This document shows positions 13,971 through 50,051 of a DNA stretch of 64,000 nucleotides, one piece after another. Position numbers and translations under genes: made by a program. The first letter of the stretch is position 1; every line of letters begins with the position of its first letter. The notes beneath the pieces are model-generated. The model did not search any database and was not told the origin of the DNA. It worked only from the letters and a program-made list of their open reading frames with translations. Source of the DNA: an uncultured Candidatus Saccharibacteria bacterium (GTDB taxonomy: Bacteria; Patescibacteriota; Doudnabacteria; UBA920); NCBI GenBank assembly GCA_964474825.1, contig CAYYWQ010000001.1, forward strand, positions 1,033,606-1,097,605, given 5' to 3'.

Positions 13971-14121
13971 AATAGGATTTTAGCATCAATTGACCGAAAT
14001 GGTAAAATCCGATATACTAATCAATCGTACTGATTCTTTGTTAAATAAAATACACCAAAGTTACGAAAGTTTTTAATGTTAGGGTTAGTATTTTTAGTAT
14101 AATTTAGTATTTAGTAGAAGT

Positions 14122-15288
14122 ATGGAAATGTCCGTTCGCCAACAAATTTTTGACCAGCTGCGTAAGAGCGAGAAAATTCTTATTGCCTTGCCGGAAAAAC
14201 TTACAGCCGACAGTCTTTCTGCCGGCCTGGCTTTGCAGTTGTTTTTGCGTAAATTACAAAAAGAAGCTGTGGTGGCCAGTAGCGGCAGTTTGCCGGAAAA
14301 CCTGCGGTTTTTGCCCGGAGCCGATGGGATTAAGTCTAGTATTGGCAGTGGCAGCGGCCTTGTAGTAACGGTAGATGCTACTATAAAAAAACTGGAAGAA
14401 ATAAGCTACCACACCACGGACGACAAAGTCCATATTTATTTAAAATCTAAAAACCAGCCGTTTACTCCGCAAGACTTGAGTTTTACAGAAGACAAGTTGC
14501 CACTGGATTTAATAGTTGTTTTAGAAGCCCAGTCTTTGGAAAGTCTTGGCGCGCTGTTTCGTGACCATGCGGATTTGTTTTACCAAACTCCAAAAATTAA
14601 TATTGACCACAAAGCCGGCAACGAACTTTTTGGCGCTGTTAATTTGGTGGAACTGGCCGCAACTTCTATTGGCGAAATTTTAGCCGGGCTTTTGGAAGAG
14701 TTTGAACAGGGTCTCATAGACGAAGATATTGCCACCTGTCTCTTGGCAGGAATTATTACCAAGACACGCAGTTTCCAGCAGGCCCAAACTACGCCGGAGG
14801 CATTTTTAAAAGCCTCGCGTTTAATTGGCGCTGGCGGCAGGCAACAGGAAATAATTAAAAATATTTATAAAACCAAGTCTTTGGCCTTACTGAAACTTTG
14901 GGGCCGATGTTTGGCTCGTTTAAAAACAGTGGGTGATTTATCTTTAGTTTATTCTTCCCTAAATGCTGGGGACTTTGAAAAGTCCGAAGCTTCGGGCGAG
15001 GAAATTTTGCCTGCCTTAAAAGAATTGTTAGACAATTTGTCCGGGTACCAAGTAGCAGGGATTTTTGCGGAGCAGGTTCAAGGCGTCGTGCGTTTGGTGT
15101 TAGCAATTTATTCCACATTGCCGCTGGAAAAAATAACAGAAGCCTTAGAAATTAAAACCAAACCAGTAACAGAACTGGGACAATACCAAATTTTTGAAGT
15201 TGAGTGGAAGGACTTAAGTTTGGCAGAAGCTGAACAGCGACTGCTTTTTGCCCTACAGCCGCTCAAAACTTTTTTGGGTTCAGTTTAA
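14122..15288 (+). CDS. DHH/DHHA1-family (NrnA-like) protein with degenerate catalytic motifs
   Basis: Its overall layout resembles NrnA, but motif I is LPEKLTADSLSAG instead of HxxPDGDAxGS. The DHH triad reads IDHK, and GGGH is replaced by GAGGRQ. Confidence 0.4.
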   Translation: MEMSVRQQIFDQLRKSEKILIALPEKLTADSLSAGLALQLFLRKLQKEAVVASSGSLPENLRFLPGADGIKSSIGSGSGLVVTVDATIKKLEEISYHTTDDKVHIYLKSKNQPFTPQDLSFTEDKLPLDLIVVLEAQSLESLGALFRDHADLFYQTPKINIDHKAGNELFGAVNLVELAATSIGEILAGLLEEFEQGLIDEDIATCLLAGIITKTRSFQQAQTTPEAFLKASRLIGAGGRQQEIIKNIYKTKSLALLKLWGRCLARLKTVGDLSLVYSSLNAGDFEKSEASGEEILPALKELLDNLSGYQVAGIFAEQVQGVVRLVLAIYSTLPLEKITEALEIKTKPVTELGQYQIFEVEWKDLSLAEAEQRLLFALQPLKTFLGSV

Positions 15289-15379
15289 GGATTTTAAGGA
15301 AGAAGTTTCTAAGCTCTTTGGAAATTTTTTCTTTCAAATCCGCAAGTAGTACAGTGCGGAGAAGGAAGGAGGAGAAGGA

Positions 15380-15889
15380 ATGGAAGCTGAAATTACTCTG
15401 GCAAAGGCAATACATTGGTCAGGGGCGGAAAAGGTAATGGCCCGGTTGGCATGCGAGTTGGTTGCCCGCGATATCCAGGTTGAAACCCTGGGATCAGAGA
15501 TGTCGGCCCTGCGCGCAGAATTGTTGAGGTTGCAGGAGATAAAGCGGGGGCATGAAAGCGAATTGTTGGAAGTCGGGAAGCGCAATTCTGCTCTGGGCCA
15601 GCAGCTCGTGGAAGCACACGCGCAGATTGCGTCTCTCCTGCAGGCTGTAGACTTGTGGAAGTCGCAGCTCACAACTTTGTCGGACCGGAGGTTTGTCTTA
15701 TACGGTTTGTTGGAGGACAAAAATCCGATCTGGAAAACCCGCACAATTTCGTCTAAGGTCATCCGTGACCTATTGCTCGTAATTATGGACACCGGCGCCA
15801 CGCCCCAGGCAGTGTCCGATGCCAAAACTCAGTTCCTGCGGCTCGCGGCGGCCAAGAAGCCGCGCGGCCGCAAAAGCCGCAAGTCCTAG
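15380..15889 (+). CDS. Hypothetical coiled-coil protein on a short GC-rich patch
   Basis: A strong SD (aggaggag) lies 7 nt before the ATG. The protein has heptad-like Leu/Glu/Gln-rich composition and a basic tail KKPRGRKSRKS. The fully overlapping antisense ORF 15334-15825 has a Ser/Cys-rich, implausible composition. Confidence 0.45.
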   Translation: MEAEITLAKAIHWSGAEKVMARLACELVARDIQVETLGSEMSALRAELLRLQEIKRGHESELLEVGKRNSALGQQLVEAHAQIASLLQAVDLWKSQLTTLSDRRFVLYGLLEDKNPIWKTRTISSKVIRDLLLVIMDTGATPQAVSDAKTQFLRLAAAKKPRGRKSRKS

Positions 15890-16012
15890 TTTCGTCGAGG
15901 TTCCTATGGAATCTCCTATCAGCCGGCGCCGCCCACCAGGGACGACGCCGGTATTTTGTTGGCGAAATTATGTTATAATTACTAAAGACAAATCAAATAT
16001 CCAGAAACAAAA

Positions 16013-17668
16013 ATGAGTAAGAATTTTTTAGCTAGCACGCCAAAACAACTGCAGGAAGCGCTGGACGATGTTAACCGCAAAATGGCGGAGGAAGAAACGC
16101 AGGCCAAGGCCGGATCCCTTGGCTTGCCTTATATTGATTTGCATAATTTCCCTGTGGATTTAATAATTTTGGGCATGTTTACCGAAGAAGAGGCTAAGGA
16201 AATAGGCGCGGTGCCTTTCTATAAAGAAGGGAAAGATTTACGTTTGGGTGTTACGAATCCGGACCACCCGCTTCTTTTGGAAAAAATTAATGAGTTTAAA
16301 AAAGAGGGCAACAAGATTACCTTGTACATGATTTCCAAACGCAGCCTGGCTCAGGCTATGCGTTTTTACAGTAAAGTTCTTCGCCCCAAAGCCGCGCATG
16401 AGGAAGCCGTTAGGGTTGGTGAAGGCCGGGATTTTGTAGAGGAGATAAAAATACTTCAAGCAGAGGAAGAGCAAAAGAAAAAAACAGCCAGCGAGCTCAT
16501 GGAAGTAATGTTTGGCGGCGGACTTTTTTACAAAGCTTCAGACATTCATTTGGAACCAGAAGAACATTTTGTTAAACTTCGCTTCCGTGTGGACGGAGTC
16601 TTGCAAGACGTTTTACATATTAGCAAAGACTTGCAGCGCTCTTTAGTTACCCGCATAAAAATTTTGGCGCAAATGAAATTAAACGTGGAGAACGTTCCCC
16701 AGGACGGGCGTATTACTTTTTACTATTTGGACAAACCCATAGACGTCCGTGTTTCTGTGTTGCCTAGTGCATACGGCGAGGAAATAGTTATGAGACTTTT
16801 AGGGACTGGTGCCGTAGAACTTCATTTGAAAGATTTGGGTTTCCGGCAGCAGCATCAGGACGCGGTGCATAGAATTTTAAACAAGCCTAACGGCGCAATT
16901 ATTACTACTGGCCCCACGGGCAGCGGAAAAACCACAACGCTTTATGCTTTTTTAAATGAACTCAATGAGCCAGGCGTAAAAATTATTACTTTAGAAGACC
17001 CGGTGGAATATAAACTGGAGGGGATAGTGCAAACGCCAATAGACCACACAGCAGATTTTGATTTTGCCAAAGGCCTTAGAGCAATTCTGCGGCAAGACCC
17101 GGACGTAGTTATGATTGGTGAAATCCGCGACCAGGAAACTGCTGAGGTGGCGCTTCAGGCCGCTCTTACCGGACACACGGTGCTTTCTACTTTGCATACT
17201 AACGACGCGGCTGGTGCCATTCCTCGTTTAATAAATATGGGAGTAAAACCTTTTATAATCGGCCCCGCGCTTTCTGCCGTGTTGGCCCAGCGTTTGGTGC
17301 GCCGCTTATGCCAAGACTGCAAAACAAAAACAGCGCTTGCTCCAACTGTAATGGAAAAAATAAATTATGTGTTAAAGCAATTACCCAAGGCTTCAGGAAT
17401 TGAATTGCCAAAAGAAATGCAATTCTATCACAGCCCGGGCTGCGAACAGTGTCACAAGCTCGGCTACAAAGGCCGCTTGGGCATATACGAAATTTTGGAA
17501 GTTACAGACGCAGTCCAAAAGTTGGTTATGAAAGAATCTTCCATGTCGGAGTTTAAGGAAGAGGGTATAAAGCAGGGAATGATAACTATGCTGCAAGATG
17601 GATTACTAAAAGCGTTAGATGGTTTAACAGATGTAGAAGAAGTGTTTAGGGTTGCGGGGGAGGGATAA
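16013..17668 (+). CDS. Type II/IV secretion system ATPase (GspE/PilB family)
   Basis: It has the Walker A GPTGSGKTTTLYA, Asp and His boxes, a tetracysteine CxxC...CxxC motif (CQDC...CEQC), and an N-terminal GspE_N-like domain. Confidence 0.85.
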   Translation: MSKNFLASTPKQLQEALDDVNRKMAEEETQAKAGSLGLPYIDLHNFPVDLIILGMFTEEEAKEIGAVPFYKEGKDLRLGVTNPDHPLLLEKINEFKKEGNKITLYMISKRSLAQAMRFYSKVLRPKAAHEEAVRVGEGRDFVEEIKILQAEEEQKKKTASELMEVMFGGGLFYKASDIHLEPEEHFVKLRFRVDGVLQDVLHISKDLQRSLVTRIKILAQMKLNVENVPQDGRITFYYLDKPIDVRVSVLPSAYGEEIVMRLLGTGAVELHLKDLGFRQQHQDAVHRILNKPNGAIITTGPTGSGKTTTLYAFLNELNEPGVKIITLEDPVEYKLEGIVQTPIDHTADFDFAKGLRAILRQDPDVVMIGEIRDQETAEVALQAALTGHTVLSTLHTNDAAGAIPRLINMGVKPFIIGPALSAVLAQRLVRRLCQDCKTKTALAPTVMEKINYVLKQLPKASGIELPKEMQFYHSPGCEQCHKLGYKGRLGIYEILEVTDAVQKLVMKESSMSEFKEEGIKQGMITMLQDGLLKALDGLTDVEEVFRVAGEG

Positions 17669-17700
17669 AAGAGTAATAAAGTTCGTAAAGTTAAAAAGTA

Positions 17701-17727
17701 AAAACCGCTTGTTTAGGCGGTTTTTTT
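17701..17727 (+). terminator. Intrinsic terminator after the GspE/PilB gene
   Basis: aaaaccgcttgtttaggcggttttttt: a hairpin followed by T7. Confidence 0.5.
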
Positions 17728-17738
17728 AATTGGGAGGG

Positions 17739-17767
17739 TTGACAATTAGATTGAAATAATGTATAAT
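17739..17767 (+). promoter_or_regulatory. Perfect sigma70 consensus promoter (TTGACA-N17-tgTATAAT)
   Basis: TTGACA is at 17739-17744, the spacer is exactly 17 nt, and TATAAT is at 17762-17767 preceded by TG. It points into the GC-rich gene at 17993. Confidence 0.55.
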
Positions 17768-17992
17768 TGCGGGTCATAATCCAAAATTGTGGGTTGTGCA
17801 TTTTTTGGTCTTTAAAAGTCTTTAGGAGGATTTTTTAAGGACCCTGAACCAGTCAGCGAAAGCTTCCGGTTTAGGGCAAGGAAGAAATTATATTCCCTGG
17901 GCAGGTTTGGCTATTATTTTAGTACCCAATCCCGCCCAGGGAACAGTCGCGAAGTTCCTTGGTTGTTGTTATCTCACGTTCAAAGGATCCAG

Positions 17993-19030
17993 ATGAAAAA
18001 TTTACTGAAGTTCGGTTTGCTGTGGCTCACGTTCACCACAGTCGTTTTTTCACAGAACAACATCCAGCCAGCCGGGGGCAGTGATTCCCAGCCGAAGGGC
18101 TGCAACGGGACGGTAATGTATGTTACGGAGATCCAATCGCAGACAGTGTATCAAGTCTGCATTGAGAAGAACGGGACGCGTTTCCGTTCTGTTGGGTACT
18201 CCGGCTATTCTTATCGGCTGGCCCTGACGAATGACGAACAGGTCGCCGCCTACGAAGCGACCGGACGATTGTTCCGTTACTGGACGGGCGTCTTCCAGGG
18301 ACAGCACTATCTCCCGGGGAACGGCCGCATTACCCAGCTCGAAGGCAACACCATCTCGTTCGAGTATCCCAATGCCGCACCCCGCACTTTCGCCCTGTAC
18401 TACGACGGCGAATTTTCCACGTTCCGGACAGGTCCTATTACCGGCTTTCCGAAGCCTACCCAGAATTGCCTCAGAGCTGTCGACAACGGCGGCTACTGGT
18501 GTCTGATGCCAGACCGCAAGCTGTTGTTTTGGCAGCGTGGGTTCGCCGGGTTCAACACGCTGGAAGGGGCCCGGGTGGTTGCTGAGGGGGTGGGAGGGTT
18601 GGTCTCATTGGAGTTGGGTTCCGTGCTCTACACGACCGTTAACGAACTCAATTGCGGCGTACCTAGCTCCAGGCCCCAGCCTTGCAGGTTGCAGAAGCCG
18701 GCCCAGATAATTCGGGCAAGCTTCAACTACGGCAGCTTGCAGTTCGACCGCAAAACTTTGGGGTCGGGGTATATAAACGACAACCCCTACTCCGATGGAC
18801 TTGCGGTGTCGGACGGCAACCTGTACTACATTGACTACGACCCCTCCATCGGATCCCGCATCATTCAGTTCGACCTGAAGACCAACCGGTCCAGGGTTGT
18901 TCTGGACGGCAACCTGTTCAGGCTTCGCCGTGATGATGGTACGCGCATTATGCCGGGGTTTGGCGCACTTGTTGTTGCGCCGAATCTCAATCCGGCGATG
19001 GCCGCGCCTGCCCTTCCGACCGTTCGGTAG
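17993..19030 (+). CDS. Secreted hypothetical protein, GC-rich, possibly beta-propeller-like
   Basis: It has the signal peptide MKNLLKFGLLWLTFTTVVFSQNN; the ORF-track start at 17963 is upstream. G+C is much higher than in its neighbours. The blade-like segment GNLYYIDYDPSIGSRIIQFDLKTNRSRVV is weak evidence only. Confidence 0.5.
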   Translation: MKNLLKFGLLWLTFTTVVFSQNNIQPAGGSDSQPKGCNGTVMYVTEIQSQTVYQVCIEKNGTRFRSVGYSGYSYRLALTNDEQVAAYEATGRLFRYWTGVFQGQHYLPGNGRITQLEGNTISFEYPNAAPRTFALYYDGEFSTFRTGPITGFPKPTQNCLRAVDNGGYWCLMPDRKLLFWQRGFAGFNTLEGARVVAEGVGGLVSLELGSVLYTTVNELNCGVPSSRPQPCRLQKPAQIIRASFNYGSLQFDRKTLGSGYINDNPYSDGLAVSDGNLYYIDYDPSIGSRIIQFDLKTNRSRVVLDGNLFRLRRDDGTRIMPGFGALVVAPNLNPAMAAPALPTVR

Positions 19031-19105
19031 TTTCTTCTCCCAGCCCGACTCCATCAAACATTTTTCGTGTAGAGTCGGGGCCGTTCTCGGCGGTTTTCTC
19101 GAGGT

Positions 19106-19138
19106 GCAGGCAATCCAAGTGGTTGCCTGCGTTTTTTT
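19106..19138 (+). terminator. Intrinsic terminator (gcaggcaa-tccaagtgg-ttgcctgc + T7)
   Basis: A perfect 8-bp stem followed by a T-run, immediately after the GC-rich gene. Confidence 0.55.
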
Positions 19139-19167
19139 ATTGTCATAAATAGTTTATAATACTGAAT

Positions 19168-21951
19168 ATGACATCTCCCAAAACTGCCCGCTATATGTTA
19201 ATAGACGGTAACGCGTTAATTCACCGCGGTTACCATGCTATTCCGGTTTTAAATACTAAAAGTGGTGAGCAAACCAACGCGGTTTATGGCTTTAGTTTAA
19301 TTTTGCTAAAAGCCATGGCCGACATTAAGCCCACGCATATTGCCTGCACGTTCGATTTAGCAGGCCCGACTTTTAGGCATGAGCAATACAAAGAATATAA
19401 AGGCACGCGTGTTAAGGCCGACCAGGAACTTTATAACCAAATTCCTCGGGTAAAAGAAGTGGTGCGAAGTTTAAATATTCCAATTTTTGAAAAGCAGGGT
19501 TTTGAGGCGGACGATTTACTCGGGACTTTGGCTTGCGGCATTCACAAAGGTTTTCCTGAAGCAGAAGTTTTAATTGTTACCGGGGATTTAGATACGCTGC
19601 AATTAGTGAATCATAAAATCAAGGTGTATACCATGCGGAAGGGTATTTCTGACGTGGTAATTTATGATGCTAAGGCAGTGCGGGAGCGTTACGGCCTTTT
19701 GCCTGAGCAAATGGTGGACTATAAAGCCCTCCGCGGCGACCCCAGTGACAACATTCCTGGCGTAAAAGGTATTGGAGAAAAAACTGCTGAGGAATTAATT
19801 AAAGAATTTAAATCTTTGGACGGTTTATATCAAGCGATTAGAGAAAAGAGAGTAGAGAATAGGATAAAGCCACGGATATTGAATTTACTTACTGAACAGG
19901 AGGAGCAGGCAAGGATGTCTTATAAATTATCCGTAATAGACTGCAACGTACCGGCAGACATAACTGTTCCGGCCTACGATTTTGACGCGCCGCATTTACA
20001 GCAAACAGTAAAGCTGTTTCAGGAACTGGAGTTTAGGAGTTTGATAAATAAGCTGCCGAAACAAGATTCAAGATTTAAGATTCAAGATTCAAGTCAGACC
20101 GACACAGAGCTATTAGCTTCTGAGGAAGACGTCGTTTCACAAAGTAAGATAGGGACACAAGATTATAAGTTAATAGATACAGAAGAAAAACTTGAGCAAA
20201 TTTTAAAAGTATTATCTTCCGCAAAAGAAATTTCTGTAGACACTGAGACAACAAGTTTAAATACTATAGACGCTAAATTGGTTGGTGTTGGTTTGGCTAT
20301 GGAGCCTGGGCAAGCCTATTATCTTCCGGCCAATATTGTGTTTAATTCCCCTGACTTAAAGCAAATTTTAGAAAATCCGGAAATAAAAAAAATCGGCCAC
20401 AACATAAAATACGACCTGCAGATCCTGAGCACTGAGCACTTAGCACTGAGCACTGTTTCTTTCGACACCATGATAGCCTCCTACCTTTTAAACGCGGGCA
20501 CTCGCCAGCACGGCTTGGACGCTTTGGCTTTTAACGAATTTGGTTACCAAATGCAGCCAATAGAAGATTTAATTGGCAAAGGTAAAACGCAGATTACCAT
20601 GGATAAGGTGGACCCGGAAAAAGTTTCCTGGTATTGCTGTGAAGACGTAGACATAACCTTGCGCCTTAAAGAATTGTTTGAGCCGCAACTGAAAAAAGAA
20701 GGTTTGGAAAAAGTTTTTTACGAAATAGAAATGCCTTTGCTGGAAGTTTTATCTGCCATGGAGATGGCGGGCATTAAAGTAGATGCTAAGTTTTTAAACA
20801 AACTTTCCTCGGAAGCGGAAATTGAAATTAAAGATCTAGAAAGAAGTATTTATAAGCTCACAGGCGAGGAGTTTAATATAAACTCGCCTAAGCAAATGAA
20901 GGAAGTGCTGTTCGACAAGCTAAAGTTGGAACCCATTGCTAACAAGAAGAATAAGAGTGGACTTAGTACTGCCGCGGGAGAGCTGGAAAAAATGTTGGGA
21001 CAGCACCCGGTTATTCCAAAAATTTTAGAATACCGGGAAATTTCCAAGCTGCAAAATACTTATTTGCTCGCTTTGCCTGAATTGGTTAACAAAAAAACTG
21101 GACGTATTCACACCAGTTATAGCCAAACTATTGCCGCAACAGGCAGGCTTTCTTCTATAGACCCAAATTTACAAAATATTCCTGTACGCGGTGAAGGCAT
21201 GGGCAGTAAAGTGCGCCAGGCTTTTGTAGCGGAAAAAGGTTATAAACTTTTAAGTTTGGACTATTCTCAAATTGAACTGCGCATTGTGGCACACTTAGCG
21301 CAGGACAAAACCATGCTGGAAGTTTTTAAGAATGACCAGGATATTCACAGTAAAACTGCAATGGAAATTTTTGGAGTGAGCGCAGACAAAATTACACCAG
21401 ACATGAGGCGCGACGCTAAAACTATTAATTTTGGAATTTTATACGGTTTATCATCTTTTGGACTTTCGGCCCGCATTGGTGAAGTTAATCGTGCCGAAGC
21501 CAAAGAATTTATTACCAAATATTTTGCGGCTTACCCAGGTGTGGCTGAATATATAGAGCAAATTAAACTTCAAGTTAACGAAGAAGGATTTGTAAAAAAT
21601 GAGCTTGGACGCATACGCAAATTTCCGGAAATAAAATCTTCTCAGTTCTTTATTCGAGCCGCAGCAGAAAGAGCAGCTGTTAATTTTCCAATTCAAAGTT
21701 TGGCAGCAGATGTAATTAAGGTGGCGATGATAAATATACACAAGCTAATCAGCGAATCAGCGAATCAGCCGATCCGCATGCTACTGCAGGTGCACGACGA
21801 ATTGGTGTTTGAGGTTCAAGAAGATAAAGTGGAAGAATGGGCAAAAAAGCTCATACCTTTAATGGAAAATGCAATTAAACTCTCTGTTCCCATTAAAGTA
21901 GAAGGTAAGGTCGGGGATAATTGGGGAGAAATGGAGAGGTTAAATGAGTAA
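19168..21951 (+). CDS. polA: DNA polymerase I
   Basis: It has a 5'-3' exonuclease N-terminus, 3'-5' exo motifs (ISVDTETTSL, YDLQIL...FDTMIASYLLN), and polymerase motifs A/B/C (LLSLDYSQIELRIVAHL, RRDAKTINFGILYG, LLQVHDELVFEV). Confidence 0.95.
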   Translation: MTSPKTARYMLIDGNALIHRGYHAIPVLNTKSGEQTNAVYGFSLILLKAMADIKPTHIACTFDLAGPTFRHEQYKEYKGTRVKADQELYNQIPRVKEVVRSLNIPIFEKQGFEADDLLGTLACGIHKGFPEAEVLIVTGDLDTLQLVNHKIKVYTMRKGISDVVIYDAKAVRERYGLLPEQMVDYKALRGDPSDNIPGVKGIGEKTAEELIKEFKSLDGLYQAIREKRVENRIKPRILNLLTEQEEQARMSYKLSVIDCNVPADITVPAYDFDAPHLQQTVKLFQELEFRSLINKLPKQDSRFKIQDSSQTDTELLASEEDVVSQSKIGTQDYKLIDTEEKLEQILKVLSSAKEISVDTETTSLNTIDAKLVGVGLAMEPGQAYYLPANIVFNSPDLKQILENPEIKKIGHNIKYDLQILSTEHLALSTVSFDTMIASYLLNAGTRQHGLDALAFNEFGYQMQPIEDLIGKGKTQITMDKVDPEKVSWYCCEDVDITLRLKELFEPQLKKEGLEKVFYEIEMPLLEVLSAMEMAGIKVDAKFLNKLSSEAEIEIKDLERSIYKLTGEEFNINSPKQMKEVLFDKLKLEPIANKKNKSGLSTAAGELEKMLGQHPVIPKILEYREISKLQNTYLLALPELVNKKTGRIHTSYSQTIAATGRLSSIDPNLQNIPVRGEGMGSKVRQAFVAEKGYKLLSLDYSQIELRIVAHLAQDKTMLEVFKNDQDIHSKTAMEIFGVSADKITPDMRRDAKTINFGILYGLSSFGLSARIGEVNRAEAKEFITKYFAAYPGVAEYIEQIKLQVNEEGFVKNELGRIRKFPEIKSSQFFIRAAAERAAVNFPIQSLAADVIKVAMINIHKLISESANQPIRMLLQVHDELVFEVQEDKVEEWAKKLIPLMENAIKLSVPIKVEGKVGDNWGEMERLNE

Positions 21952-22657
21952 TGAGGGGCAAAATCTAGGCCGAGTTCCTTTTGAGCTTGGTGAAAAAATT
22001 GGTTCTGGTACGACTGCGGAAGTTTTTGAGTCCGTGAAGAATCCAAATTTGGTTGTCAAAAAATTTAAAATAATTTGGGCAGAAGGAGATGAGTCAGAAA
22101 ATTATTCTGAGGAGACTTTTAAAAGGATTTTTAAAAGAAATTTTGACCAAATGGCTGAAGCTTTTGGTGAGTATTTTCCAAAAGGACAGTTGGTGTTTGG
22201 AGAAGAGGAAAAAGGGCAGACTGTAGGTTACTTAATTCAGGAGAAGATATTTAAAGACCGCCCCTTGTTTTTTACCAAGGAAAAAAAACAGAAACTAGAG
22301 GCTTTGGATAGTGTTCTTAGTCATATTGTAGAAAATTTTAAAAGACTAAGTGCGGAAAAAGAGAAGGTGTCCGGAAAATTAGGCACACGGACTTGGAATT
22401 ATTTGCCAGAGATGTTGTCGCAAGATGAAAATAAGGAAACGCGGGTTACTATGCCGGACTTTATGGGTCCAGACGATATGGTATATGGTCACACTGCGGA
22501 CAATCCAAAACCACGATATCTTTTACACGACATTTATCGTTTCGTGGCAATAAACCAGGATAATTTGCTAAAGTTTGTTAAAAGTACAGTGGCTTTTAAA
22601 ATTTATGATTTTCCTAAAACCCGCGCTGCTTTGGAATCATTAAAAAGTATTGAATAA
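21944..22657 (+). CDS. Hypothetical protein, possibly with a protein-kinase-like fold
   Basis: The N-terminus LGEKIGSGTTAEVFESVKNPNLVVKKF resembles a kinase Gly-rich loop followed by a VxxK lysine. I found no clear catalytic HRD/DFG motif. It overlaps the polA stop by 8 nt. Confidence 0.3.
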   Translation: MSNEGQNLGRVPFELGEKIGSGTTAEVFESVKNPNLVVKKFKIIWAEGDESENYSEETFKRIFKRNFDQMAEAFGEYFPKGQLVFGEEEKGQTVGYLIQEKIFKDRPLFFTKEKKQKLEALDSVLSHIVENFKRLSAEKEKVSGKLGTRTWNYLPEMLSQDENKETRVTMPDFMGPDDMVYGHTADNPKPRYLLHDIYRFVAINQDNLLKFVKSTVAFKIYDFPKTRAALESLKSIE

Positions 22658-22662
22658 AGTTT

Positions 22663-23265
22663 ATGGATTTAACTGAGTATCATCAAAAATATATTAACAT
22701 GCCCCAAGATTGGGTGGAGTTTGGTCTTAGGGCCAAAGATGCCCAATTAAAACAGGTCTTTGAGGAAATTAACTGGCAGCCAGCGGCCGACGCTGTAAAG
22801 ATTGCGGTTTTAGGCTGCGCGGACAAGCGCTTTGTTGCTGGCCATAAACAACTTTTTAAAAAGTTTCTAAAAAAAGAAGTAGAGGTTACAACTTTTGACA
22901 TTACAACCGAGCATCTTTCTGGCGCGGAAAATGTAGTTGAGCACGACTGCACCAAACCTTTTCCCGGCGCGTCGTTTGATTTAATTTTTTCTCACATTCT
23001 ACTTAAGTTTATGCCTGCAGATTCGCAATGGTTGGTTTTAGAAAACTCTTTTAACGCTTTAGCGCCAGGTGGTGTGGCATTACATTTTATGGACGTACAA
23101 GGCCAGACCGTGCCAACAAGCATGATAGCAGAAGGTTTTTTTCAAATTCCTTTGGCGGAATTTAAAAATCGTCTTACAGAAAAAGCAATTAAATTTCAAA
23201 GCTGTATAGTCAAGTCTAAGGCAGAACAAAATAGAGATTTGGAATGCCTGGCGTTGTTTAAATAG
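22663..23265 (+). CDS. Putative class I SAM-dependent methyltransferase-like protein
   Basis: IAVLGCADKRF looks like motif I and DLIFSHILLKF like post-II, followed by LAPGGVALHF. The assignment is weak. Confidence 0.3.
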   Translation: MDLTEYHQKYINMPQDWVEFGLRAKDAQLKQVFEEINWQPAADAVKIAVLGCADKRFVAGHKQLFKKFLKKEVEVTTFDITTEHLSGAENVVEHDCTKPFPGASFDLIFSHILLKFMPADSQWLVLENSFNALAPGGVALHFMDVQGQTVPTSMIAEGFFQIPLAEFKNRLTEKAIKFQSCIVKSKAEQNRDLECLALFK

Positions 23266-27704: not shown

Positions 27705-28382
27705 CTACCACTCGAGCGAGACGCCGAACTTGGCGCCGAACTTGGAAGGGCTGTGCTCCTCTTCCTTGTGCTCGAAGGGCGATCTATAAACACTGTGAGT
27801 GACACCGGCCGTGAGCCGGTACTTTAACCTGTTGTGGAAATGGGCTTCCCAACGGACCGCGCCGACGGCCTCCGCCTCCCATTTTTCGTTGATTCCGAGG
27901 TAGCCGCCTTCAGCTACGGCAAAGAAGTTGTGGTACAGGTGCCGTGCGTATTCGGCTCCAGGATTGCCGATCTTTATAGAGCTTGATCGGAATTGGAGAT
28001 GGCGGTAGTTACCGGTCAGTTCGTGGAGTGGATGGTGGCTTTTGTCGAAGAATTCCACGTAGGCACCCGCTTCCACCATGGCGCCAACCAGTCCTTTCTC
28101 TGAGAACAAGGGACCTGCATTGGCCCGAATTCTCCATTCCCGGTCTTCTTTCCCTTCAGGGTTCTTCCAGGAATAACCTAGAGTTGCTGCCCCAAACTGC
28201 TGGGGATGGCCCTCGTCGGCTAAGCGGAGCCAGGTGGCTCCGACGGAAACGTTTCCAGTTAGCTTTTGGTGTGTGCTAACCAGTTGCGTTCCGCTCTGGT
28301 AGATGGCGTTGATCTGGTAATCCTCGGCAAACATCTCCGAAGACAAAATAAAAACTGCTACAGTCAGCAGTGTTAGTCTCAC
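27705..28382 (-). CDS. Predicted outer-membrane-type beta-barrel protein (OmpW/PagL-size), GC-rich
   Basis: It has the signal peptide MRLTLLTVAVFILSSEMFA, alternating hydrophobic beta-strand patterns, and a C-terminal beta-signal ...KFGVSLEW ending in an aromatic residue. Its G+C is well above that of its neighbours. Confidence 0.4.
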   Translation of the reverse strand: MRLTLLTVAVFILSSEMFAEDYQINAIYQSGTQLVSTHQKLTGNVSVGATWLRLADEGHPQQFGAATLGYSWKNPEGKEDREWRIRANAGPLFSEKGLVGAMVEAGAYVEFFDKSHHPLHELTGNYRHLQFRSSSIKIGNPGAEYARHLYHNFFAVAEGGYLGINEKWEAEAVGAVRWEAHFHNRLKYRLTAGVTHSVYRSPFEHKEEEHSPSKFGAKFGVSLEW

Positions 28383-43240: not shown

Positions 43241-44308
43241 ATGGTTGAGGTAAAATGGGGTGCAAATGCGGATCGTCCGTATTGGTTTCCCTTTAGTGAT
43301 CAGATAAAAGAATGGCTCTCTAATAACGAGAGCCTGCCAGACACTTTGTTGTACCTGCGCCCAACGTATAAGGAGGGGCAGCAGGAGCAAGTGGCTGGAC
43401 GTTTGGTTGTTGTGCTGGGTCGTGATGATTGGCCGAGCACAAAAGGGACCCTTGAGGCGGAAGGGAGCTTGAAGATTGACTTCATTCCGCAGGGTAATTT
43501 TCTTCGGATTTGGGGGCTACCAAATTGTCCCGACCGGAGAGACGGCGAGGAGGTGGTGAGGATTCTGAGTCGTCTGTTGCCCGAGGTTGCAAAGACTGAC
43601 CCACAAAAAAAACTTGCAATAATGGCAATGGTCTCTGAGGCCTATGTTAAAGAGTGCTCGAAGAGATTTGAAAAAACCCTTGAAGGAACCCGCAAGGCGA
43701 TCAAAGACGGTAACGCAGCCGTGGCCAAGCTCCAAGTGGAGCTCGTGAAAAAGATTCGCGAGACCCGAGGGGCTGAGCGCAAGCTTGAGCAAATGGAGTC
43801 CTCGCGCGAAGCGCAGACCGAAGGATACGCGCAGGAGTTTAATAAACTCCTGCAGGTCCCTAAAGTCCGTAGGGTGGAGGCAAAGGAGGGCAAAGTGATA
43901 GTTTACACCGACGTTCTTTTTTGTACGGATCCCCGGACGGGGATATGTCACGAGATTGGCGCGTTCAGGATTGAACTAGTTGCGGATATGGGGATCCCGT
44001 ACTGGTTTAACTTAACCCGTTCCGTTGACGGGTACAACAATAGAATGCAGGCACCACATATTTACTCGAACGGGCAGGCCTGTCTGGGTAACGCCGCGGA
44101 AATCTTCCCGGAACTCATAGGTAACTATGAGTTTGCGGCCGCAGCCATGGTGGCTATCCAGTTCGTGGAGTCGGTGAACACCGACGACACGGCTGGAAAA
44201 CACATTGACAAGTGGCCGGTGGCGAAGGAGCAACCGGTCAAAATCGCAACCGCAACAAAGGTGGCAAATTTAGTGCCGCCACAACCGTCTTGGAGGAGCA
44301 ATGGCTGA
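43241..44308 (+). CDS. E2-like (UBC-fold) ubiquitin-conjugating enzyme homolog with a roughly 200-aa N-terminal coiled-coil extension
   Basis: The C-terminal segment IPYWFNLTRSVDGYNNRMQAPHIYSNGQACLGNAAEIFPEL parallels the E2 core YPF.PP...F.T.IyHPNI..nG.ICLdiL, with the catalytic Cys in the xCL position. An SD (aaggag) precedes the ATG. Its stop overlaps the next gene. Confidence 0.5.
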   Translation: MVEVKWGANADRPYWFPFSDQIKEWLSNNESLPDTLLYLRPTYKEGQQEQVAGRLVVVLGRDDWPSTKGTLEAEGSLKIDFIPQGNFLRIWGLPNCPDRRDGEEVVRILSRLLPEVAKTDPQKKLAIMAMVSEAYVKECSKRFEKTLEGTRKAIKDGNAAVAKLQVELVKKIRETRGAERKLEQMESSREAQTEGYAQEFNKLLQVPKVRRVEAKEGKVIVYTDVLFCTDPRTGICHEIGAFRIELVADMGIPYWFNLTRSVDGYNNRMQAPHIYSNGQACLGNAAEIFPELIGNYEFAAAAMVAIQFVESVNTDDTAGKHIDKWPVAKEQPVKIATATKVANLVPPQPSWRSNG

Positions 44309-45035
44309 AAAGTTAAGGCGTGAGTGGGGCGGCGCCAAGAAGTTTGCGCCTCATGAATTTTCCTCGCGAGTAGAACTCGCGGGAGGCTTGCCTCGGGTTC
44401 TCGTGACCCGCGATGCGTACGAAGATATGTACTGCATCGTTGACGCGGTCGACAAAGAGGTAGGTTGGCTTGGCGCTGTCCAGCGTCTCGGAAATGATTT
44501 TCTGATCACGGAGGTTTTCCTCTTTGACCAGGAGACGCACGCGACAACGTGTGAGATCACGCCCGACGGCATGGCGGAGTTCGCCATGCAGCTCATGTCG
44601 TCCCGACCGGACGGCATGGAAGTAGCCAACTCAATCCGCTTCTGGGGGCACAGTCACGTGAATATGGGGACCAGCCCTTCGGGGCAGGACGAGACCCAAT
44701 TGCGTGAGCTGGCGGCTTCGTGTGGTGATTTTTTCGTTCGGGGCATTTTGAATAAGTCCGGACGGATGGAGTGGACCATCGTACTTGCTTCTGTTGGCGT
44801 CGTAATCCGCGACGCCGCGTGGGAGCTTTACGAACCCGCCGCCGATGCCCGCCGCCGACAGCGGTGGGAGGCGGAAATCGCAACTAAAGTCCGGGAAAAG
44901 ACCTACCCGCAACCGACCTTCGGGTCGGAACGTCGGTGGTCATCAACGATTATTCCCGGACCGGTCGCCTCCGCGGTCCCGCTCTCCAAGCGGGCACAGC
45001 GGCGGCTAGAGAAAGCGGGCAAAAATGGCCATTGA
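44301..45035 (+). CDS. JAB/JAMM (MPN+) metalloprotease-family protein, a putative Ubl-processing/deconjugating peptidase
   Basis: It has a complete JAMM motif: E (LITEVF) ... HSHVNMGTSPSGQD, which is HxHx7Sx2D. It overlaps both neighbours, indicating translational coupling. Confidence 0.65.
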   Translation: MAEKLRREWGGAKKFAPHEFSSRVELAGGLPRVLVTRDAYEDMYCIVDAVDKEVGWLGAVQRLGNDFLITEVFLFDQETHATTCEITPDGMAEFAMQLMSSRPDGMEVANSIRFWGHSHVNMGTSPSGQDETQLRELAASCGDFFVRGILNKSGRMEWTIVLASVGVVIRDAAWELYEPAADARRRQRWEAEIATKVREKTYPQPTFGSERRWSSTIIPGPVASAVPLSKRAQRRLEKAGKNGH

Positions 45036-45732
45036 TCCGCTTCGGCATCTAAGCGTCTTTTCGCCGCATGCCTTTGGGCAGCGGCGGGTAGACGTAATTG
45101 GCTGCGGGGCCACAGGGTCCCGTATTGTGCTTTCTTTGGCGAAGCTCGGCGTGGAGAACATTCACGTGTGGGACTTCGACGTCGTCGAAGAGCACAACAT
45201 TCCGAACCAAGCGTTCTGGCAGGAAATGCACGTCGTGCACGATTCTGCCAAACCGAAGCTGGCGAAGGTCTCGGCCATGGCCGAGATCGTCGAGATCGCC
45301 ACGGGGACCAAAATCACCGTCCATCAGGAGAAGGTGGACGGCACCCAAAGCTTGGGTGAAGTAGTTTTTCTTCTCACCGACACCATGTTTTCGAGAAAGG
45401 AGATTTGGGAAGGAGCCTTGAAGTTCAAGCTCCGGACCGAACTCTTAATTGAGACCCGCATGGGTGCGGACTCGGGCCGGGTGTATAGCCTGGACCCGAA
45501 TAAGCTCGGCCAAATCAAAGCATACGAGGAGACTCTGTGTTCTGACGAAGAGGCCGAGGTTAGCGCTTGCGGCGCAAGTGTGTCGGTGGGGTCAACCGCG
45601 GAAGTGATTTCCGGACTCGCGGTCTGGCAAATGATTCGATGGTTTTCCATTGAGCAGGGAGGCGACGATGAGCTCGACAACGAGATCATTTTTGGCCTCC
45701 GCCCAATGCTGACCATCAGCAGGAAGTTTTGA
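45025..45732 (+). CDS. ThiF/MoeB-type E1-like activating enzyme
   Basis: It has the Rossmann/ATP motif VDVIGCGATGSRIVLSLAKLGVENIHVWDFDVVEEHNIPNQ, with Gly-rich GxGxxG and acidic DxD, and a downstream Cys-containing block ACGASVSVGSTAEVISGLAVW, which is the E1 catalytic-Cys region. Confidence 0.7.
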   Translation: MAIDPLRHLSVFSPHAFGQRRVDVIGCGATGSRIVLSLAKLGVENIHVWDFDVVEEHNIPNQAFWQEMHVVHDSAKPKLAKVSAMAEIVEIATGTKITVHQEKVDGTQSLGEVVFLLTDTMFSRKEIWEGALKFKLRTELLIETRMGADSGRVYSLDPNKLGQIKAYEETLCSDEEAEVSACGASVSVGSTAEVISGLAVWQMIRWFSIEQGGDDELDNEIIFGLRPMLTISRKF

Positions 45733-45733
45733 T

Positions 45734-46051
45734 ATGGGCTGGCTGGCGGGCCGTAACGAGATAATTCAACTTCGTCTCCAACCACCAAAGCCAACGGCCT
45801 ATGTTAATTTTGGTTCAGGTATTGAGTTCACTGCCGACTTCATTGTTGGTATGACACTTCGCAACCTGATCCAGTTTTTGCAGCAGAACTGTAGCTATCG
45901 TTCTATTCACGGCGATGAAATCCCGTGGTTGCATGACTTCCTGCGAACCGGCGACCTTAAGAATTTCCCGGCGGATTTGGACTATGTTATCCAGCCGGGT
46001 GACAAAATTGTTCTGGACTTAACGAAGTTGTTGAGTCCGGTAAGTAAGTAA
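45734..46051 (+). CDS. Small beta-grasp (ubiquitin-like/ThiS-like) protein without a terminal Gly-Gly
   Basis: It has the C-terminal beta-grasp-like DYVIQPGDKIVLDL pattern. Its start is 1 nt after the E1 stop. It ends ...LLSPVSK, with no GG. Confidence 0.4.
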   Translation: MGWLAGRNEIIQLRLQPPKPTAYVNFGSGIEFTADFIVGMTLRNLIQFLQQNCSYRSIHGDEIPWLHDFLRTGDLKNFPADLDYVIQPGDKIVLDLTKLLSPVSK

Positions 46052-46183
46052 ATGTAGTATAGAGGCCGGCATTGCCGCCCGTCGAATGTAGACGTTAAAA
46101 AATATGGGTCCCAAAGGGATTAAATTTAAAACCCATCCGCAGTTTGTAGAGCATTGGCAAACAGCGAAGACAGGAGTAAAACA

Positions 46184-46966
46184 ATGCGGAGTTTCATTAA
46201 CGTCAGAATCGGCCGGCTCCCCGGTCGGATTTCGGAAATTGTGCTTAATGGCGACCGCACGGTCGCTACCGCGTTGATGACCGCCGGCCTGGACAGCGCT
46301 GGCTACGATATCCGGGTGCAGGGTGCACCCGCGAGCATGACAACCGGACTCAACGAGGGGGACATTGTCCTCCTCGTGAAGAAGATCAAGGGGAACGGCG
46401 GGATTGAGGGCGCAACCTTCGTTCACGTCGGCCGCGTCCCCGGACCCGGTCTTGTCCAGTTTGCACTGGATGAGCCCACGGTCTTCATGGCTTTGTCTGC
46501 CGCTGGTCTCAATCTGGGGCCGGATGAGGTGGTTTACCGCAACGACCAGCTTTCTTCCATCGGGGAACCGGTGGAAGACGGCGACAAGATCGTCGTCCGG
46601 CATCCGATGCCGGCGATGGTCGCGGCTTCGCCGGAATTGCCGTCCGGCTTGCACCAGACTGCGCCGGTAGTTTCTGCCACGTTCGATTTCTCGGCCGTGG
46701 TCGGCACCGACCCGGCCCAGCTCTGCTCCAGCGCGGAACGGCTGACCCGCGAAGCGGAGGAGCTCGAGGCGGGAGCTCGCGCCGCGCTCGCCAGCGCGGC
46801 CGAGAAGAAGGTTGCGGCCTCGGCCCATTGGGCCAAAGCCGCGGCTATCGAGACCGCCAACGAGGCGTTGGCAAATGCCAGCGCCCAGCTCGAAACCCTT
46901 GGGGTTATTCGCCCCAAGGGCGAAGGACGGTGGACTGATATCCGCCGCCTCTTCGGCCTCTCGTAG
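46184..46966 (+). CDS. Tandem beta-grasp (multi-ubiquitin-like) protein with an internal KGNGG and a C-terminal Ala-rich coiled coil
   Basis: Module 1 is INVRIGRLPGRISEIVLNGDRTVATALMTAGL...EGDIVLLVKKIKGNGG, with a diglycine at the module end. Module 2 is ...GPDEVVYRNDQLSSIGEPVEDGDKIVVRHP. The SD (aggag) favours the ATG at 46184 over the track start at 46154. Confidence 0.5.
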   Translation: MRSFINVRIGRLPGRISEIVLNGDRTVATALMTAGLDSAGYDIRVQGAPASMTTGLNEGDIVLLVKKIKGNGGIEGATFVHVGRVPGPGLVQFALDEPTVFMALSAAGLNLGPDEVVYRNDQLSSIGEPVEDGDKIVVRHPMPAMVAASPELPSGLHQTAPVVSATFDFSAVVGTDPAQLCSSAERLTREAEELEAGARAALASAAEKKVAASAHWAKAAAIETANEALANASAQLETLGVIRPKGEGRWTDIRRLFGLS

Positions 46967-47376
46967 TAGACGAGGTGCGCGAAATTTTGTCACCGTCTTA
47001 GCAACAGATGGCGAGACAAGCAGGGGCAGACCTGCAAACATCAAATTAATAAAAAGGAAAATAAAAAAAGGTAAAAAAATAAATCTTCCCGCAAGGGTTG
47101 CCTGAAACCTTAAAGCACCACAGGCGTAAAAGCACGGGTACACTGATCGTAATGTCAACGAGTTTAATAAAATAGGTCTCTGCCACAAGGCGGAGGCCAT
47201 CGAGTCAAGAAGTAAATGGCAGGGTGATGCCCACCTGCCAGCCACGAAGTTGTGGCAAACAAAACGGGACAATGCACCAAGATTGGGGAGAGGTAGACTG
47301 CACACCTACCTTTCCTCTTTCCAATTTAGCGCACAAAATTTTTGTGAGCTGGATTGGGAGGTGAAGTATTAAAAAA

Positions 47377-47622
47377 TTACCAGAACTTCTTTGCCAGTTC
47401 TGCCAGCGCAAGCTGGAGGGCTGGGAAGATTACCGGCAGACGCACGAATGCGTCTGCGGAGCTAAGTACTTTGTCGTCTCGCATGACGACTTGTGTATGG
47501 CTCCGAGTTTGGCCCACGATGCCTTTGGTATTAAGGAAGAAGGCGCGGTCGAAGTCAGGGTCATCGAGAAGTTCGATGTCCTGACCGATGAAGGCCAGGT
47601 TCCGGAAGATGGGGATTGGCAA
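47377..47622 (-). CDS. Small hypothetical protein on the island
   Basis: An 81-aa ORF with an SD (aggaaggg) 9 nt upstream of the ATG on the - strand. It has no recognisable motif. Confidence 0.25.
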   Translation of the reverse strand: MPIPIFRNLAFIGQDIELLDDPDFDRAFFLNTKGIVGQTRSHTQVVMRDDKVLSSADAFVRLPVIFPALQLALAELAKKFW

Positions 47623-47699
47623 GACATGGTCTTTGCCCTTCCTAAAAAATAAAAAGCCCGGTTGGTGGACCGGTTAAATAAAACCGCTAAGCACTCAAA

Positions 47700-47752
47700 T
47701 TTGGGACGAGTGAGTTAACAGTCATTCGTCCCAAATTTATTTATTATTTATC
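47700..47752 (+). terminator. Intrinsic terminator (ttgggacga-N14-tcgtcccaa + T-rich tail)
   Basis: A 9-bp perfect stem at about 47703-47736, followed by tttatttattatttatc. It probably ends the Ubl operon transcript. Confidence 0.4.
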
Positions 47753-47918
47753 TTCAATCACCTGCCGGAATGACGGCTTAAGAGTAGTTGGGGAGCTGTA
47801 TGGTTTAGCCAATTAATTTTGGTACAAATCTCTCTCCTCAAGCGGCTCCTTAATGCTTTTAAACTTTTCATTTCGGCAGTTGGGTGGAGGAAAAATAAAA
47901 AAAACAAAGGTGAACAAA

Positions 47919-48500
47919 ATGTTTAGTTGGTTGTTAAGATGGTTGAACTTGGACAAACCAACGGCCACAGGTGCGGCCGTTGAACAAGTGACGACAGAAG
48001 TTGCGGTCGTCGAAAAACCAAAAACGTCAGAGCCCCCGCCTGCCCCGCGGGAGGAGGCGGACCGGGACACGCATGTACTTAATTCCCAGTATCGCAGCAT
48101 TCGGCCGTTTGTGCCGGCGGCTGAAGTTCCCAAGGCCGTTGTGGCGGCGGATCTTGTGGAGTTTGAGGCTATTCCCGCTGGAGACGGGAAAACGGCGCCC
48201 GGGGATTGCCGACCGACGCGATTCCCCAATGGGGCGATCCTTGAGGTTGTCCAGAAAAGGGAGGGGGTAGTAATGGTGCGGTGCTATGTGCCGTACCACT
48301 ACACCAACAGGAGGTGGTGGCGGCCAGAAAAATTGATGGGTCAAATTTTTTTGATGCCAACAGAGAGATTTTGTTGGCTGGCCCAGCAGAAGTACCCGCC
48401 GGGCCACTGGGCTTTGCGGGACTACCGGGACGAGGTGGCCCGTCGGCAAGCTCAGGGCTTGCTGGATTACATCAACCTGCCCCCGCCTGGGGGCAAATAA
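47919..48500 (+). CDS. Hypothetical protein on the island
   Basis: The start MFSWLLRWL is preceded by an SD (aaggtg). The track start at 47853 has no SD. It is Pro/Ala-rich N-terminally, and I could not identify a domain. Confidence 0.4.
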   Translation: MFSWLLRWLNLDKPTATGAAVEQVTTEVAVVEKPKTSEPPPAPREEADRDTHVLNSQYRSIRPFVPAAEVPKAVVAADLVEFEAIPAGDGKTAPGDCRPTRFPNGAILEVVQKREGVVMVRCYVPYHYTNRRWWRPEKLMGQIFLMPTERFCWLAQQKYPPGHWALRDYRDEVARRQAQGLLDYINLPPPGGK

Positions 48501-48517
48501 ACGAAGCATTCAGTTTT

Positions 48518-49104: not shown

Positions 49105-49142
49105 GCTAAGATGCTGGTACATAATTTAAAGAAGAAAGCAAT

Positions 49143-50027: not shown

Positions 50028-50051
50028 GGAGGGGGCATGAGACTTGCAGCA

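Follow-up and report, generated by a model that had tools for sequence, protein, structure and literature searches.

A conserved promoter and structured leader precede variable secreted-protein genes between pilB and polA in Candidatus Doudnabacteria

We analyzed a 64-kb stretch of DNA (referred to here as the window; positions 1,033,606 to 1,097,605 of contig CAYYWQ010000001.1) from a Candidatus Doudnabacteria genome (Patescibacteria, also known as candidate phyla radiation [CPR]). The subject of this analysis is a single gene that fills the gap between pilB and polA (the slot), together with its promoter and its 5' untranslated region (UTR), i.e., the leader. The open reading frame (ORF) in the slot is referred to as the cargo, and the promoter plus the first part of the leader are referred to as the platform. 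The window was compared with the pilB-region loci of relatives (labelled L0xx, L1xx, or L2xx). The PolA relatives at 62 to 80% identity were all Candidatus Doudnabacteria or unclassified Patescibacteria metagenome-assembled genomes, and the nearest relatives available were approximately 75 to 83% identical in PilB. The features of the locus are as follows (SD, Shine-Dalgarno).

14122-15288, + strand: DHH-family gene (ORF list and Pfam)
16013-17668, + strand: pilB (Pfam T2SSE, 7e-125)
17700-17725, + strand: pilB intrinsic terminator, AAAAACCGC-loop-GCGGTTTTT, the end of the conserved left flank
17739-17767, + strand: sigma-70-type promoter (-35 TTGACA at 17739-17744, 17-nt spacer, -10 TATAAT at 17762-17767)
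17775-17798, + strand: hairpin HP1, beginning 1 to 2 nt from the predicted 5' end, with a U-rich tract (17799-17806) after it
17807-17843, + strand: conserved block (pyrimidine tract GGTCTTT at 17807-17813, SD-like TAGGAGGAT at 17823-17831, purine tract AAGGACC at 17837-17843)
17842-17876, + strand: extra hairpin CCCTGAACC...GGTTTAGGG, at the start of the GC-rich, putatively exchangeable segment
17893-17943, + strand: long hairpin HP3, with the basal helix TTCCCTGGGC/GCCCAGGGAA
17982-17987, + strand: genuine ribosome-binding site, weak (AAAGGA, 5 nt ahead of the ATG; read from the sequence)
17993-19030, + strand: cargo ORF, ATG start, 345 aa, uncharacterized (family A, see below)
19044-19091, + strand: two 3' UTR hairpins ahead of the terminator (3' UTR fold, z = -3.64)
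19101-19142, + strand: intrinsic terminator (stem 19101-19135, 15 pairs, then TTTTTTT), the right end of the GC-rich segment
19168-21951, + strand: polA

The promoter matched the consensus at 12 of 12 positions, as an initial annotation of this DNA had stated, and was the only perfect TTGACA-N17-TATAAT in the 64-kb window (0 copies in 100 dinucleotide shuffles). The extended -10 element (TGnTATAAT) that the same annotation had described was absent; the TG directly abuts TATAAT (i.e., AATG followed by TATAAT). The intrinsic terminator of the gene was confirmed as the stem at 19101-19135 and the T run behind it. Transcription is predicted to start at approximately 17774. The leader is 225 nt long, and the fold of 17774-18000 had a z score of -4.97 relative to shuffled sequences.

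The SD-like UAGGAGGAU of the leader has no ATG, GTG, or TTG at initiation distance. It lies downstream of the terminal hairpin HP1, approximately 50 nt into the predicted transcript, and is complementary to the anti-SD sequence over 7 to 8 nt, which makes it stronger than the genuine AAAGGA site. An open frame that extends from 17816 to join the ORF was considered as coding and set aside; it has no start codon, and the leaders of relatives carry stops in several frames (judged by eye). No conserved small ORF was found behind the SD-like motif in the leaders of relatives. Farther downstream, the 10-bp inverted repeat that had been reported at about 17900-17955 proved to be real, with its position and size in need of correction: the 10-bp cores lie at 17893-17902 and 17934-17943, inside 24-nt arms (17893-17916 and 17920-17943) that are 83% complementary and enclose a 3-nt loop. 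This hairpin, HP3, is the sole one of its kind in the window.

The platform was found in 15 loci (the window, L004, L006, L009, L012, L015, L020, L021, L023, L047, L050, L096, L196, L203, and L204) and in all of them precedes the first secreted-protein gene after pilB. Its promoter consensus is cTTGACAAAAAG.T.AAAA.AG.GTATAAT, with 12/12 matches in most loci and 11/12 in L012; among 11 aligned relatives, the hexamers were invariant and the spacer was variable. A hairpin starts at nt 1 or 2 of the predicted transcript in 12 of the 15 leaders, with differing sequences and with 4 to 10 U in the next 12 nt. The block behind it is conserved across loci as GTTCTTT..(N)TAGGAGGAT..AAAGAGAAGA, again without a start codon to follow the SD-like motif, and G24, G27, G28, and A29 were invariant in 13 sequences. 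A profile search detected this SD block once in every locus and at no other place in 1.4 Mb. At the place equivalent to AAAGGA, the relatives carry a genuine ribosome-binding site of the form (T)AGGAG.

The position and structure of HP3 were retained in all 15 slot loci, while its sequence and its top (of very variable length) differed. The base of the hairpin reads TTCyyTGGG.../...CCCArrGAA or is quite different (e.g., TTGCCCCCG/CGGGGGCAA). In the basal 10-bp helix, 148 of 150 cells can pair, with 3 to 5 pair types per position; when the arms were re-dealt among loci, the mean was 80.6 +/- 8.0 and none of 2,000 trials reached 148. The arms were extracted by hand, so that this count leans towards pairing (MAFFT and RNAalifold failed to align the variable top). 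The basal helix has been maintained through many compensatory changes. The tops of some HP3 hairpins contain insertions, i.e., a palindrome of approximately 150 nt in L203 (5780-5990) and tandem GTAACA- or AGTTACTAAT-type repeats in L023 (7880-7960) and L050 (3260-3330). The extra hairpin at 17842-17876 has a counterpart only in L203, which carries the closest homologue of the cargo there.

All 15 leaders folded with z scores of -4.3 to -8.8. In each of them the sense strand was more stable than the antisense strand (mean difference, 16.9 kcal/mol), and G-U pairs numbered 173 versus 47. On account of this stability and this G-U excess, we place the leader structure in the RNA of the coding strand. 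With Rfam 15, no match at gathering thresholds was obtained in the window, and only chance-level matches appeared for 17600-19250 at E <= 10; the leader RNA is thus new in the sense that it is not represented in Rfam. A metagenome scan with a promoter-plus-GGAGGA pattern was mostly nonspecific, the only true hits being L096 and L196. A scan of viral contigs with the SD-block pattern was also nonspecific, and no viral locus among these contigs fitted the platform profile. In the more distant L025, which has the same promoter, TTCTTTGGAGGAAC is a real ribosome-binding site located 7 nt before the ATG. Because L025 uses TTCTTTGGAGGAAC for initiation, the site in the platform appears to have derived from a formerly genuine ribosome-binding site.

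The base composition changes sharply within the slot. The promoter, HP1, and the TAGGAGGAT block are AT rich (G+C, 0.31 to 0.34). A GC-rich block extends from approximately 17840 to approximately 19135, with a G+C content of 0.5 to 0.66 up to approximately 19120, after which it falls. The very high G+C content noted in the initial annotation was borne out: the gene has a G+C content of 0.57 versus approximately 0.42 in the flanks, and the G+C content at third codon positions (GC3) is 0.72 versus 0.40 to 0.45. Of 14 loci in which the cargo could be compared with its flanking genes, 12 had a cargo GC3 above that of either neighbor (L012 lay between its flanks, and L025 was excluded due to a wrong reading frame), over a range of host GC3 from 0.31 to 0.67 (e.g., L020, 0.69 versus 0.32 to 0.35; L015, 0.77 versus 0.64 to 0.67). 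In rpoB and rpoC, the C-ending fraction among two-fold pyrimidine codons was 0.66 to 0.67, the G-ending fraction was 0.28 to 0.30, and the four-fold G fraction was 0.14 to 0.15; the same three measures were 0.71, 0.77, and 0.34 for the cargo. The coding body, with third positions rich in G and C, therefore looks foreign, as had been proposed, in that its codon usage differs from that of the native, highly expressed rpoB/rpoC and resembles that of the other GC-rich orphans of the window. Possible sources of the raised GC3 are a pool of GC-rich donors, a recombination hot spot with GC-biased conversion, and selection acting at the mRNA level.

The cargo ORFs of the slot loci fall into at least six families. 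Family A comprises the window, L203 (P0003), L204 (P0004), L020 (24.7% identity, full length), L004, L009, and L021; family B comprises L006, L023, L047, L050, and L025; and the singletons are L012 (C), L015, L068 (E), and L096. A profile-profile comparison of families A and B aligned the signal peptide and nothing else. Cargo family is uncoupled from host relatedness: as judged from identities and UPGMA (unweighted pair group method with arithmetic mean) clustering of pilB/polA, PilB identity was 71.1% for same-family pairs and 70.0% for different-family pairs. Genomes that are most closely related to each other differ in cargo family (L204[A]-L012[C], 83%; L004[A]-L006[B], 81 to 82%; L050[B]-L068[E], 85% PolA identity). 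Between L204 and L012, nucleotide similarity runs from pilB through the promoter and SD block, stops, and resumes approximately 30 nt past the cargo stop codon, and these limits match the GC step of the window (17840 and 19135). From the similarity break and the GC step, we therefore take the promoter, HP1, and the SD block to be the resident part, and HP3, the ribosome-binding site, and the ORF (plus the terminator) to be the replaced part. The cargo of L068 (8971-9735) ends in a PEP-CTERM domain (TIGR02595; 20.8 bits versus a cutoff of 16), which was unexpected in a Patescibacterium, and its leader has kept the promoter and the pyrimidine tract and is devoid of the decoy SD and HP3.

The cargo protein of the window (36 kDa) has a signal peptide at residues 1 to 20 (17993-18052), with a predicted cut at VFS↓Q, in agreement with the signal-peptide protein that had been proposed. 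The N terminus, MKNLLKFGLLWLTFTTVVFS↓Q, shows the n/h/c layout of Sec/signal peptidase I substrates (MKNLLK, then FGLLWLTFTTVVF, then S↓Q; by inspection with a Kyte-Doolittle window), i.e., a basic n-region, a hydrophobic h-region, small -3/-1 residues, and no lipobox. Its homologues share the same layout and three conserved Cys pairs, and the mature part of the window protein has 6 Cys. In nearly all slot cargos, the predicted cut leaves Gln first (..F[AS]↓Q; the exceptions are L068 and L009), which recalls N-terminal pyroglutamate formation. Pfam, NCBIfam, and PDB sequence searches with the protein and the family profile gave no match, including none to S-layer anchoring or lattice domains (SLH, CWB2, etc.) in Pfam/NCBIfam. 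A word-indexed search of 5.8 billion clusters recovered only the protein itself, and word-indexed homologue searches otherwise gave two relatives, both of which the query alignments already contained. An exhaustive phmmer search of 1.84 billion representative proteins found two homologues, P0003 (30% identity; E, 1e-27) and P0004 (25%; E, 7e-7), which occupy the same slot behind the same platform in L203 and L204. The gene is present on the 1.21-Mb contig and in two independent Logan assemblies, and it is no assembly chimera, because its neighbors are the same in these independent assemblies. Samples SRR14271372 and SRR14271365 contain the gene.

Of the secreted beta-propeller suggested for this protein, the secreted and all-beta parts are very probable, and the propeller is a plausible guess of low confidence. 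An AlphaFold2 model from a five-sequence alignment was all-beta with a predicted local distance difference test (pLDDT) score of 43 and a predicted template modeling (pTM) score of 0.41, i.e., low confidence; the best Foldseek PDB matches of the model were nearly all beta-propellers, yet with template modeling (TM) scores of only approximately 0.2. As for the blade-like repeats that had been described, QFD[RL]KT and DGNL do recur (DNA repeats D1 and D2), which is weak support, and a BLASTP comparison of the protein with itself gave no significant internal repeat. A diversity-generating retroelement target was considered and rejected, as no part of 17731-19145 has a second copy in the window and no reverse transcriptase was present among the ORFs inspected at 14000-23000.

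The reading that we favor, and hold to be somewhat better than an even bet, is a one-gene replacement island: a resident platform combined with an exchangeable GC-rich segment that encodes a highly expressed, fast-diversifying exposed protein. The resident platform would consist of the consensus promoter, the hairpin at the 5' end, and the strong SD-like UAGGAGGAU, which has no start codon and lies between the pyrimidine and purine tracts. The exchangeable segment would begin right after the SD-like motif and comprise HP3, the weaker genuine ribosome-binding site, an ORF with a Sec signal peptide, and the intrinsic terminator. We propose that TAGGAGGAT is a decoy ribosome-binding site and a putative mRNA stabilizer, and we read HP1 as a 5' protective hairpin, with an early attenuator as the alternative. 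The mRNA would then be shielded from 5'-end-dependent decay by HP1 and by a 30S subunit bound at the decoy. Because a consensus promoter is combined with a terminal hairpin and with a decoy SD that exceeds the genuine one in strength, we infer a high-output device with a long-lived mRNA; the output would be very high and stable expression, as with the STAB-SD of cry3A, the aprE leader, and S-layer leaders. The cargo would be an abundant exposed protein that is swapped by homologous recombination in the conserved flanks, under selective pressure from phages or from the host-cell partner.

Several points weigh against this reading. HP1 scored as terminator-like in a terminator scan, it is missing from 3 of the 15 leaders, and a U tract stands behind it, so that an attenuator is possible. 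The inner stem of the SD-like hairpin pairs no better than shuffled sequences (69.2% of cells paired versus 68.7%), and the SD-like motif itself may be partly base-paired. The codon usage of the cargo is not of the native high-expression pattern. The uncoupling of cargo and host was judged on identities and UPGMA clustering and not on a proper phylogeny, and the families were assigned by sequence alone, so that families may share a fold.

The initial annotation had taken the gene for a compact, self-contained import and its perfect promoter for a mark of an acquired or phage gene. Had the complete gene, from promoter and leader to ORF and terminator, been received in a single horizontal transfer from a phage or a high-GC donor, this would account for the high GC3 and non-native codon usage, for the restriction of homologues to a handful of metagenomic proteins, and for the other GC-rich orphans of the window. 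However, the DNA from the promoter to the SD-like block (the promoter and the first approximately 100 nt of the leader) is AT-rich resident DNA that occupies the same site in 15 Doudnabacteria loci whatever the cargo, and the promoter belongs to the host lineage. A search for a donor led to no distant organism: every detectable homologue of the window protein lies in the same slot of another Doudnabacteria genome, with GC3 also raised there, and no phage or plasmid copy turned up. Conservation in synteny among relatives of similar GC content, against which the claim of acquisition had been set, is thus nearly what was found. This synteny largely refutes the single-transfer explanation, which we consider very improbable; the observations of the initial annotation are largely right with small corrections, and its interpretation is half right. 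At the opposite extreme, one ancestral slot gene could have diverged past recognition by strictly vertical descent, with a local mutational or conversion bias that keeps GC3 high and without any replacement. The homologues of 25 to 30% identity in the same slot, the signal-peptide style (..F[AS]↓Q) and size (approximately 230 to 400 aa) shared by the cargos, and the GC3 excess in 12 of 14 loci, which is more suggestive of a feature of the locus than of one donor, all fit such a history. It is opposed by the independence of cargo family from pilB/polA identity, including the different families of the closest genome pairs, by the sharp similarity break between L204 and L012, by the PEP-CTERM domain in L068 only, and by the alignment of families A and B at the signal peptide alone. 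We consider strictly vertical descent improbable as a whole; within a family, vertical descent may have produced the divergence.

Two further alternatives concern the leader and its hairpins. The leader could be a regulatory switch, with HP1 and its U tract as an early terminator under the control of a factor, with the GGA-containing SD-like hairpin and the genuine ribosome-binding site as a pair of sites for a CsrA-like translational repressor, or with a pyrimidine tract that alternately masks the decoy and the genuine site. Consistent with this, HP1 is terminator-like with U-rich sequence behind it in most loci, RNAalifold pairs GUUCUUUU with AGGAGGAU, the pyrimidine tract pairs with the genuine ribosome-binding site in the minimum-energy fold of the window leader, and small divergent helix-turn-helix genes stand beside the promoter in L004 and L006. 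On the other hand, the HP1 stems are weak, AU and G-U rich, and missing in 3 loci, nothing 5' of HP1 is able to form an antiterminator, the proposed pairings lack covariation, and no Rfam match was obtained. A switch is a tentative possibility, with perhaps a quarter of our confidence. Integron-like exchange by site-specific cassettes, with HP3 as the recombination site and the conserved promoter as Pc plus attI, would explain why unrelated cargo genes follow one promoter and why HP3 travels with the exchangeable segment, at its boundary, with a conserved base and a variable top as in the attC of integron cassettes. Yet no integrase or recombinase occurs among the neighboring ORFs of the slot in the window or in relatives, inspection of the HP3 sequence reveals no RYYYAAC/GTTRRRY cores, the hairpin precedes the ORF instead of following it, the sense-strand G-U excess points to RNA and not to DNA, and each locus has one cassette with no promoterless copy in 64 kb. 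We therefore rate this explanation as highly doubtful. We also consider, as an unlikely extension, a Doudnabacteria "expression slot" system, in which the fixed platform near pilB takes mobile HP3-led cassettes that are traded between species, with HP3 as a recombination or processing signal and the constant GC3 excess as a trace of recombination at very high frequency (GC-biased gene conversion). If this were true, slot cassettes could capture foreign genes, such as that for the PEP-CTERM protein, and the slot would in effect correspond to an integron without an integrase, or to an antigenic-variation expression site, in a minimal episymbiont.

Regarding the one-gene replacement island that we favor, the nearest known systems are replacement flexible genomic islands, which encode exposed structures and are exchanged by homologous recombination (Lopez-Perez et al. 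2014, PMC4033161). The slot likewise has the same location in relatives, different genes for exposed proteins, and content that is uncoupled from core relatedness. Replacement islands and surface-antigen switching (as in the S-layer cassette types of C. difficile) resemble it in the fixed chromosomal position and in the exposed-protein genes between conserved flanks, and homologous recombination is presumed for both the islands and the slot, with content uncoupled from the core genome in both. The slot differs from replacement islands in that its unit comprises just one small gene, with the left crossover zone placed within the 5' UTR, so that a conserved promoter and leader are shared by unrelated ORFs, and in that the cargo is consistently GC richer than the host; moreover, the comparison here is across species of an uncultivated phylum and not across strains. 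With the integron platform, the slot shares one resident promoter and interchangeable, promoterless, unrelated ORFs, each with an imperfect hairpin; it differs in having no integrase or core sites, a hairpin that is 5' of the ORF with the G-U signature of RNA, and a single cassette.

The leader is probably an mRNA stabilizer of the STAB-SD or S-layer-leader type, by analogy with the following systems. The STAB-SD of Bacillus thuringiensis cry3A was reportedly described by Agaisse and Lereclus in 1996 and by Mathy and colleagues in 2007. In B. subtilis, mRNAs are stabilized by a 5'-terminal hairpin and by a ribosome-binding site near the 5' end, as seen in work on the aprE and ermC leaders. At the STAB-SD of cry3A, a 30S subunit bound to the non-initiating SD blocks RNase J1 (PMC4113751). 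The likeness lies in a strong, non-initiating SD-like sequence in the 5' UTR far upstream of the start codon. The cry3A gene is very highly expressed, and the slot gene would be so by analogy. The slot motif differs in standing behind a terminal hairpin, approximately 50 nt from the predicted 5' end, in being maybe partly paired, and in its CPR host. S-layer genes have long, structured 5' UTRs and mRNA half-lives of 14 to 15 min (PMC3666127). Their leaders (e.g., Lactobacillus slpA) resemble the slot in the strong promoter, the long folded leader, the secreted and putatively abundant surface protein, the strong terminator, and the rapid divergence; the slot protein, in contrast, is small, has no anchoring-domain match, and is encoded with codon usage that is not of the native high-expression type.

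Attachment to other cells is the presumed lifestyle of CPR/Patescibacteria, and very little is known about their exposed proteins and gene expression. This locus indicates a likely major and rapidly replaced exposed protein together with its exact regulatory context. What is new is the combination of a putative replacement island with a putative 5' stabilizer leader and a protein family that is unmatched in the libraries searched. The leader RNA is phylum specific and has testable parts (i.e., the 5' hairpin, the decoy ribosome-binding site, and the hairpin that travels with the cassette), and the platform could be usable as a strong expression element in the future genetics of these organisms.

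The gene order DHH-pilB-gap-polA is kept in approximately 30 Doudnabacteria loci, with a gap of 50 nt to 9 kb. The gap varies among relatives, as the initial annotation had proposed to check, and contains secreted proteins of 230 to 400 aa; large proteins with dockerin, He_PIG, PKD, or TIG domains; an EpsG-like membrane protein; or small PDDEXK_3, Bro-N, or helix-turn-helix genes. Because this content differs from genome to genome, the pilB-polA junction is a hot spot of exposed-protein genes and small, selfish-looking genes. The large gap proteins share the N terminus MNPY[VT]Y... followed by a membrane helix and the domains listed above, and their genes have perfect promoters with a true extended -10 element (TGCTATAAT). 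The small genes have been inserted downstream of pilB and ahead of the slot promoter. Those of the helix-turn-helix type are oriented divergently from this promoter (which they adjoin in L004 and L006) and could encode regulators. The positions of both groups in the relative loci are as follows.

Large gap proteins: L004 3979-8895, L006 4094-9912, L007 1125-9895, L027 4238-8308, L042 3949-7374, and others
Small inserted genes: L047 4518-4910, L023 7315-7698, L204 5208-5618, L012 6301-6693, L006 2086-2397 (- strand)

Other features of the window were noted in passing. An 18-nt direct repeat (17712-17729 and 17821-17838; 16/18 identical) links the tail of the pilB terminator with the SD-like block; it was considered as an insertion scar and set aside, because the two sequences more probably resemble each other by chance. 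Upstream of polA (19140-19170) is TTGTCA-N9-TATAAT, with 7 nt from TATAAT to the ATG. The polA start has no SD sequence, and L018 is arranged alike upstream of polA, which suggests that the polA mRNA is leaderless or nearly so.

Across the window of this 42% GC genome, orphan and accessory genes consistently have a higher G+C content than core genes, whereas foreign DNA is usually recognized by being AT rich; the usual rule is thus reversed here. Between the DHH gene and pilB lies one such GC-rich orphan ORF (15380-15889, + strand), which encodes a coiled-coil-like protein of 169 aa (GC3, 0.68); relatives have only approximately 90 to 270 nt at this position, and a homologue was seen in none of the relative loci. 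A second orphan (27705-28382, - strand) encodes a signal-peptide protein of 225 aa (GC3, 0.63) that has no Pfam match and its own, different promoter-like region. Finally, 43241-50171 forms an island with a G+C content of 0.52 to 0.60, in which uncharacterized genes surround a ThiF/E1-like protein (45025-45732; Pfam, 3e-17). PADLOC gave weak E1-E2 matches for this protein, and the island may be a ubiquitin-like conjugation or defense module.

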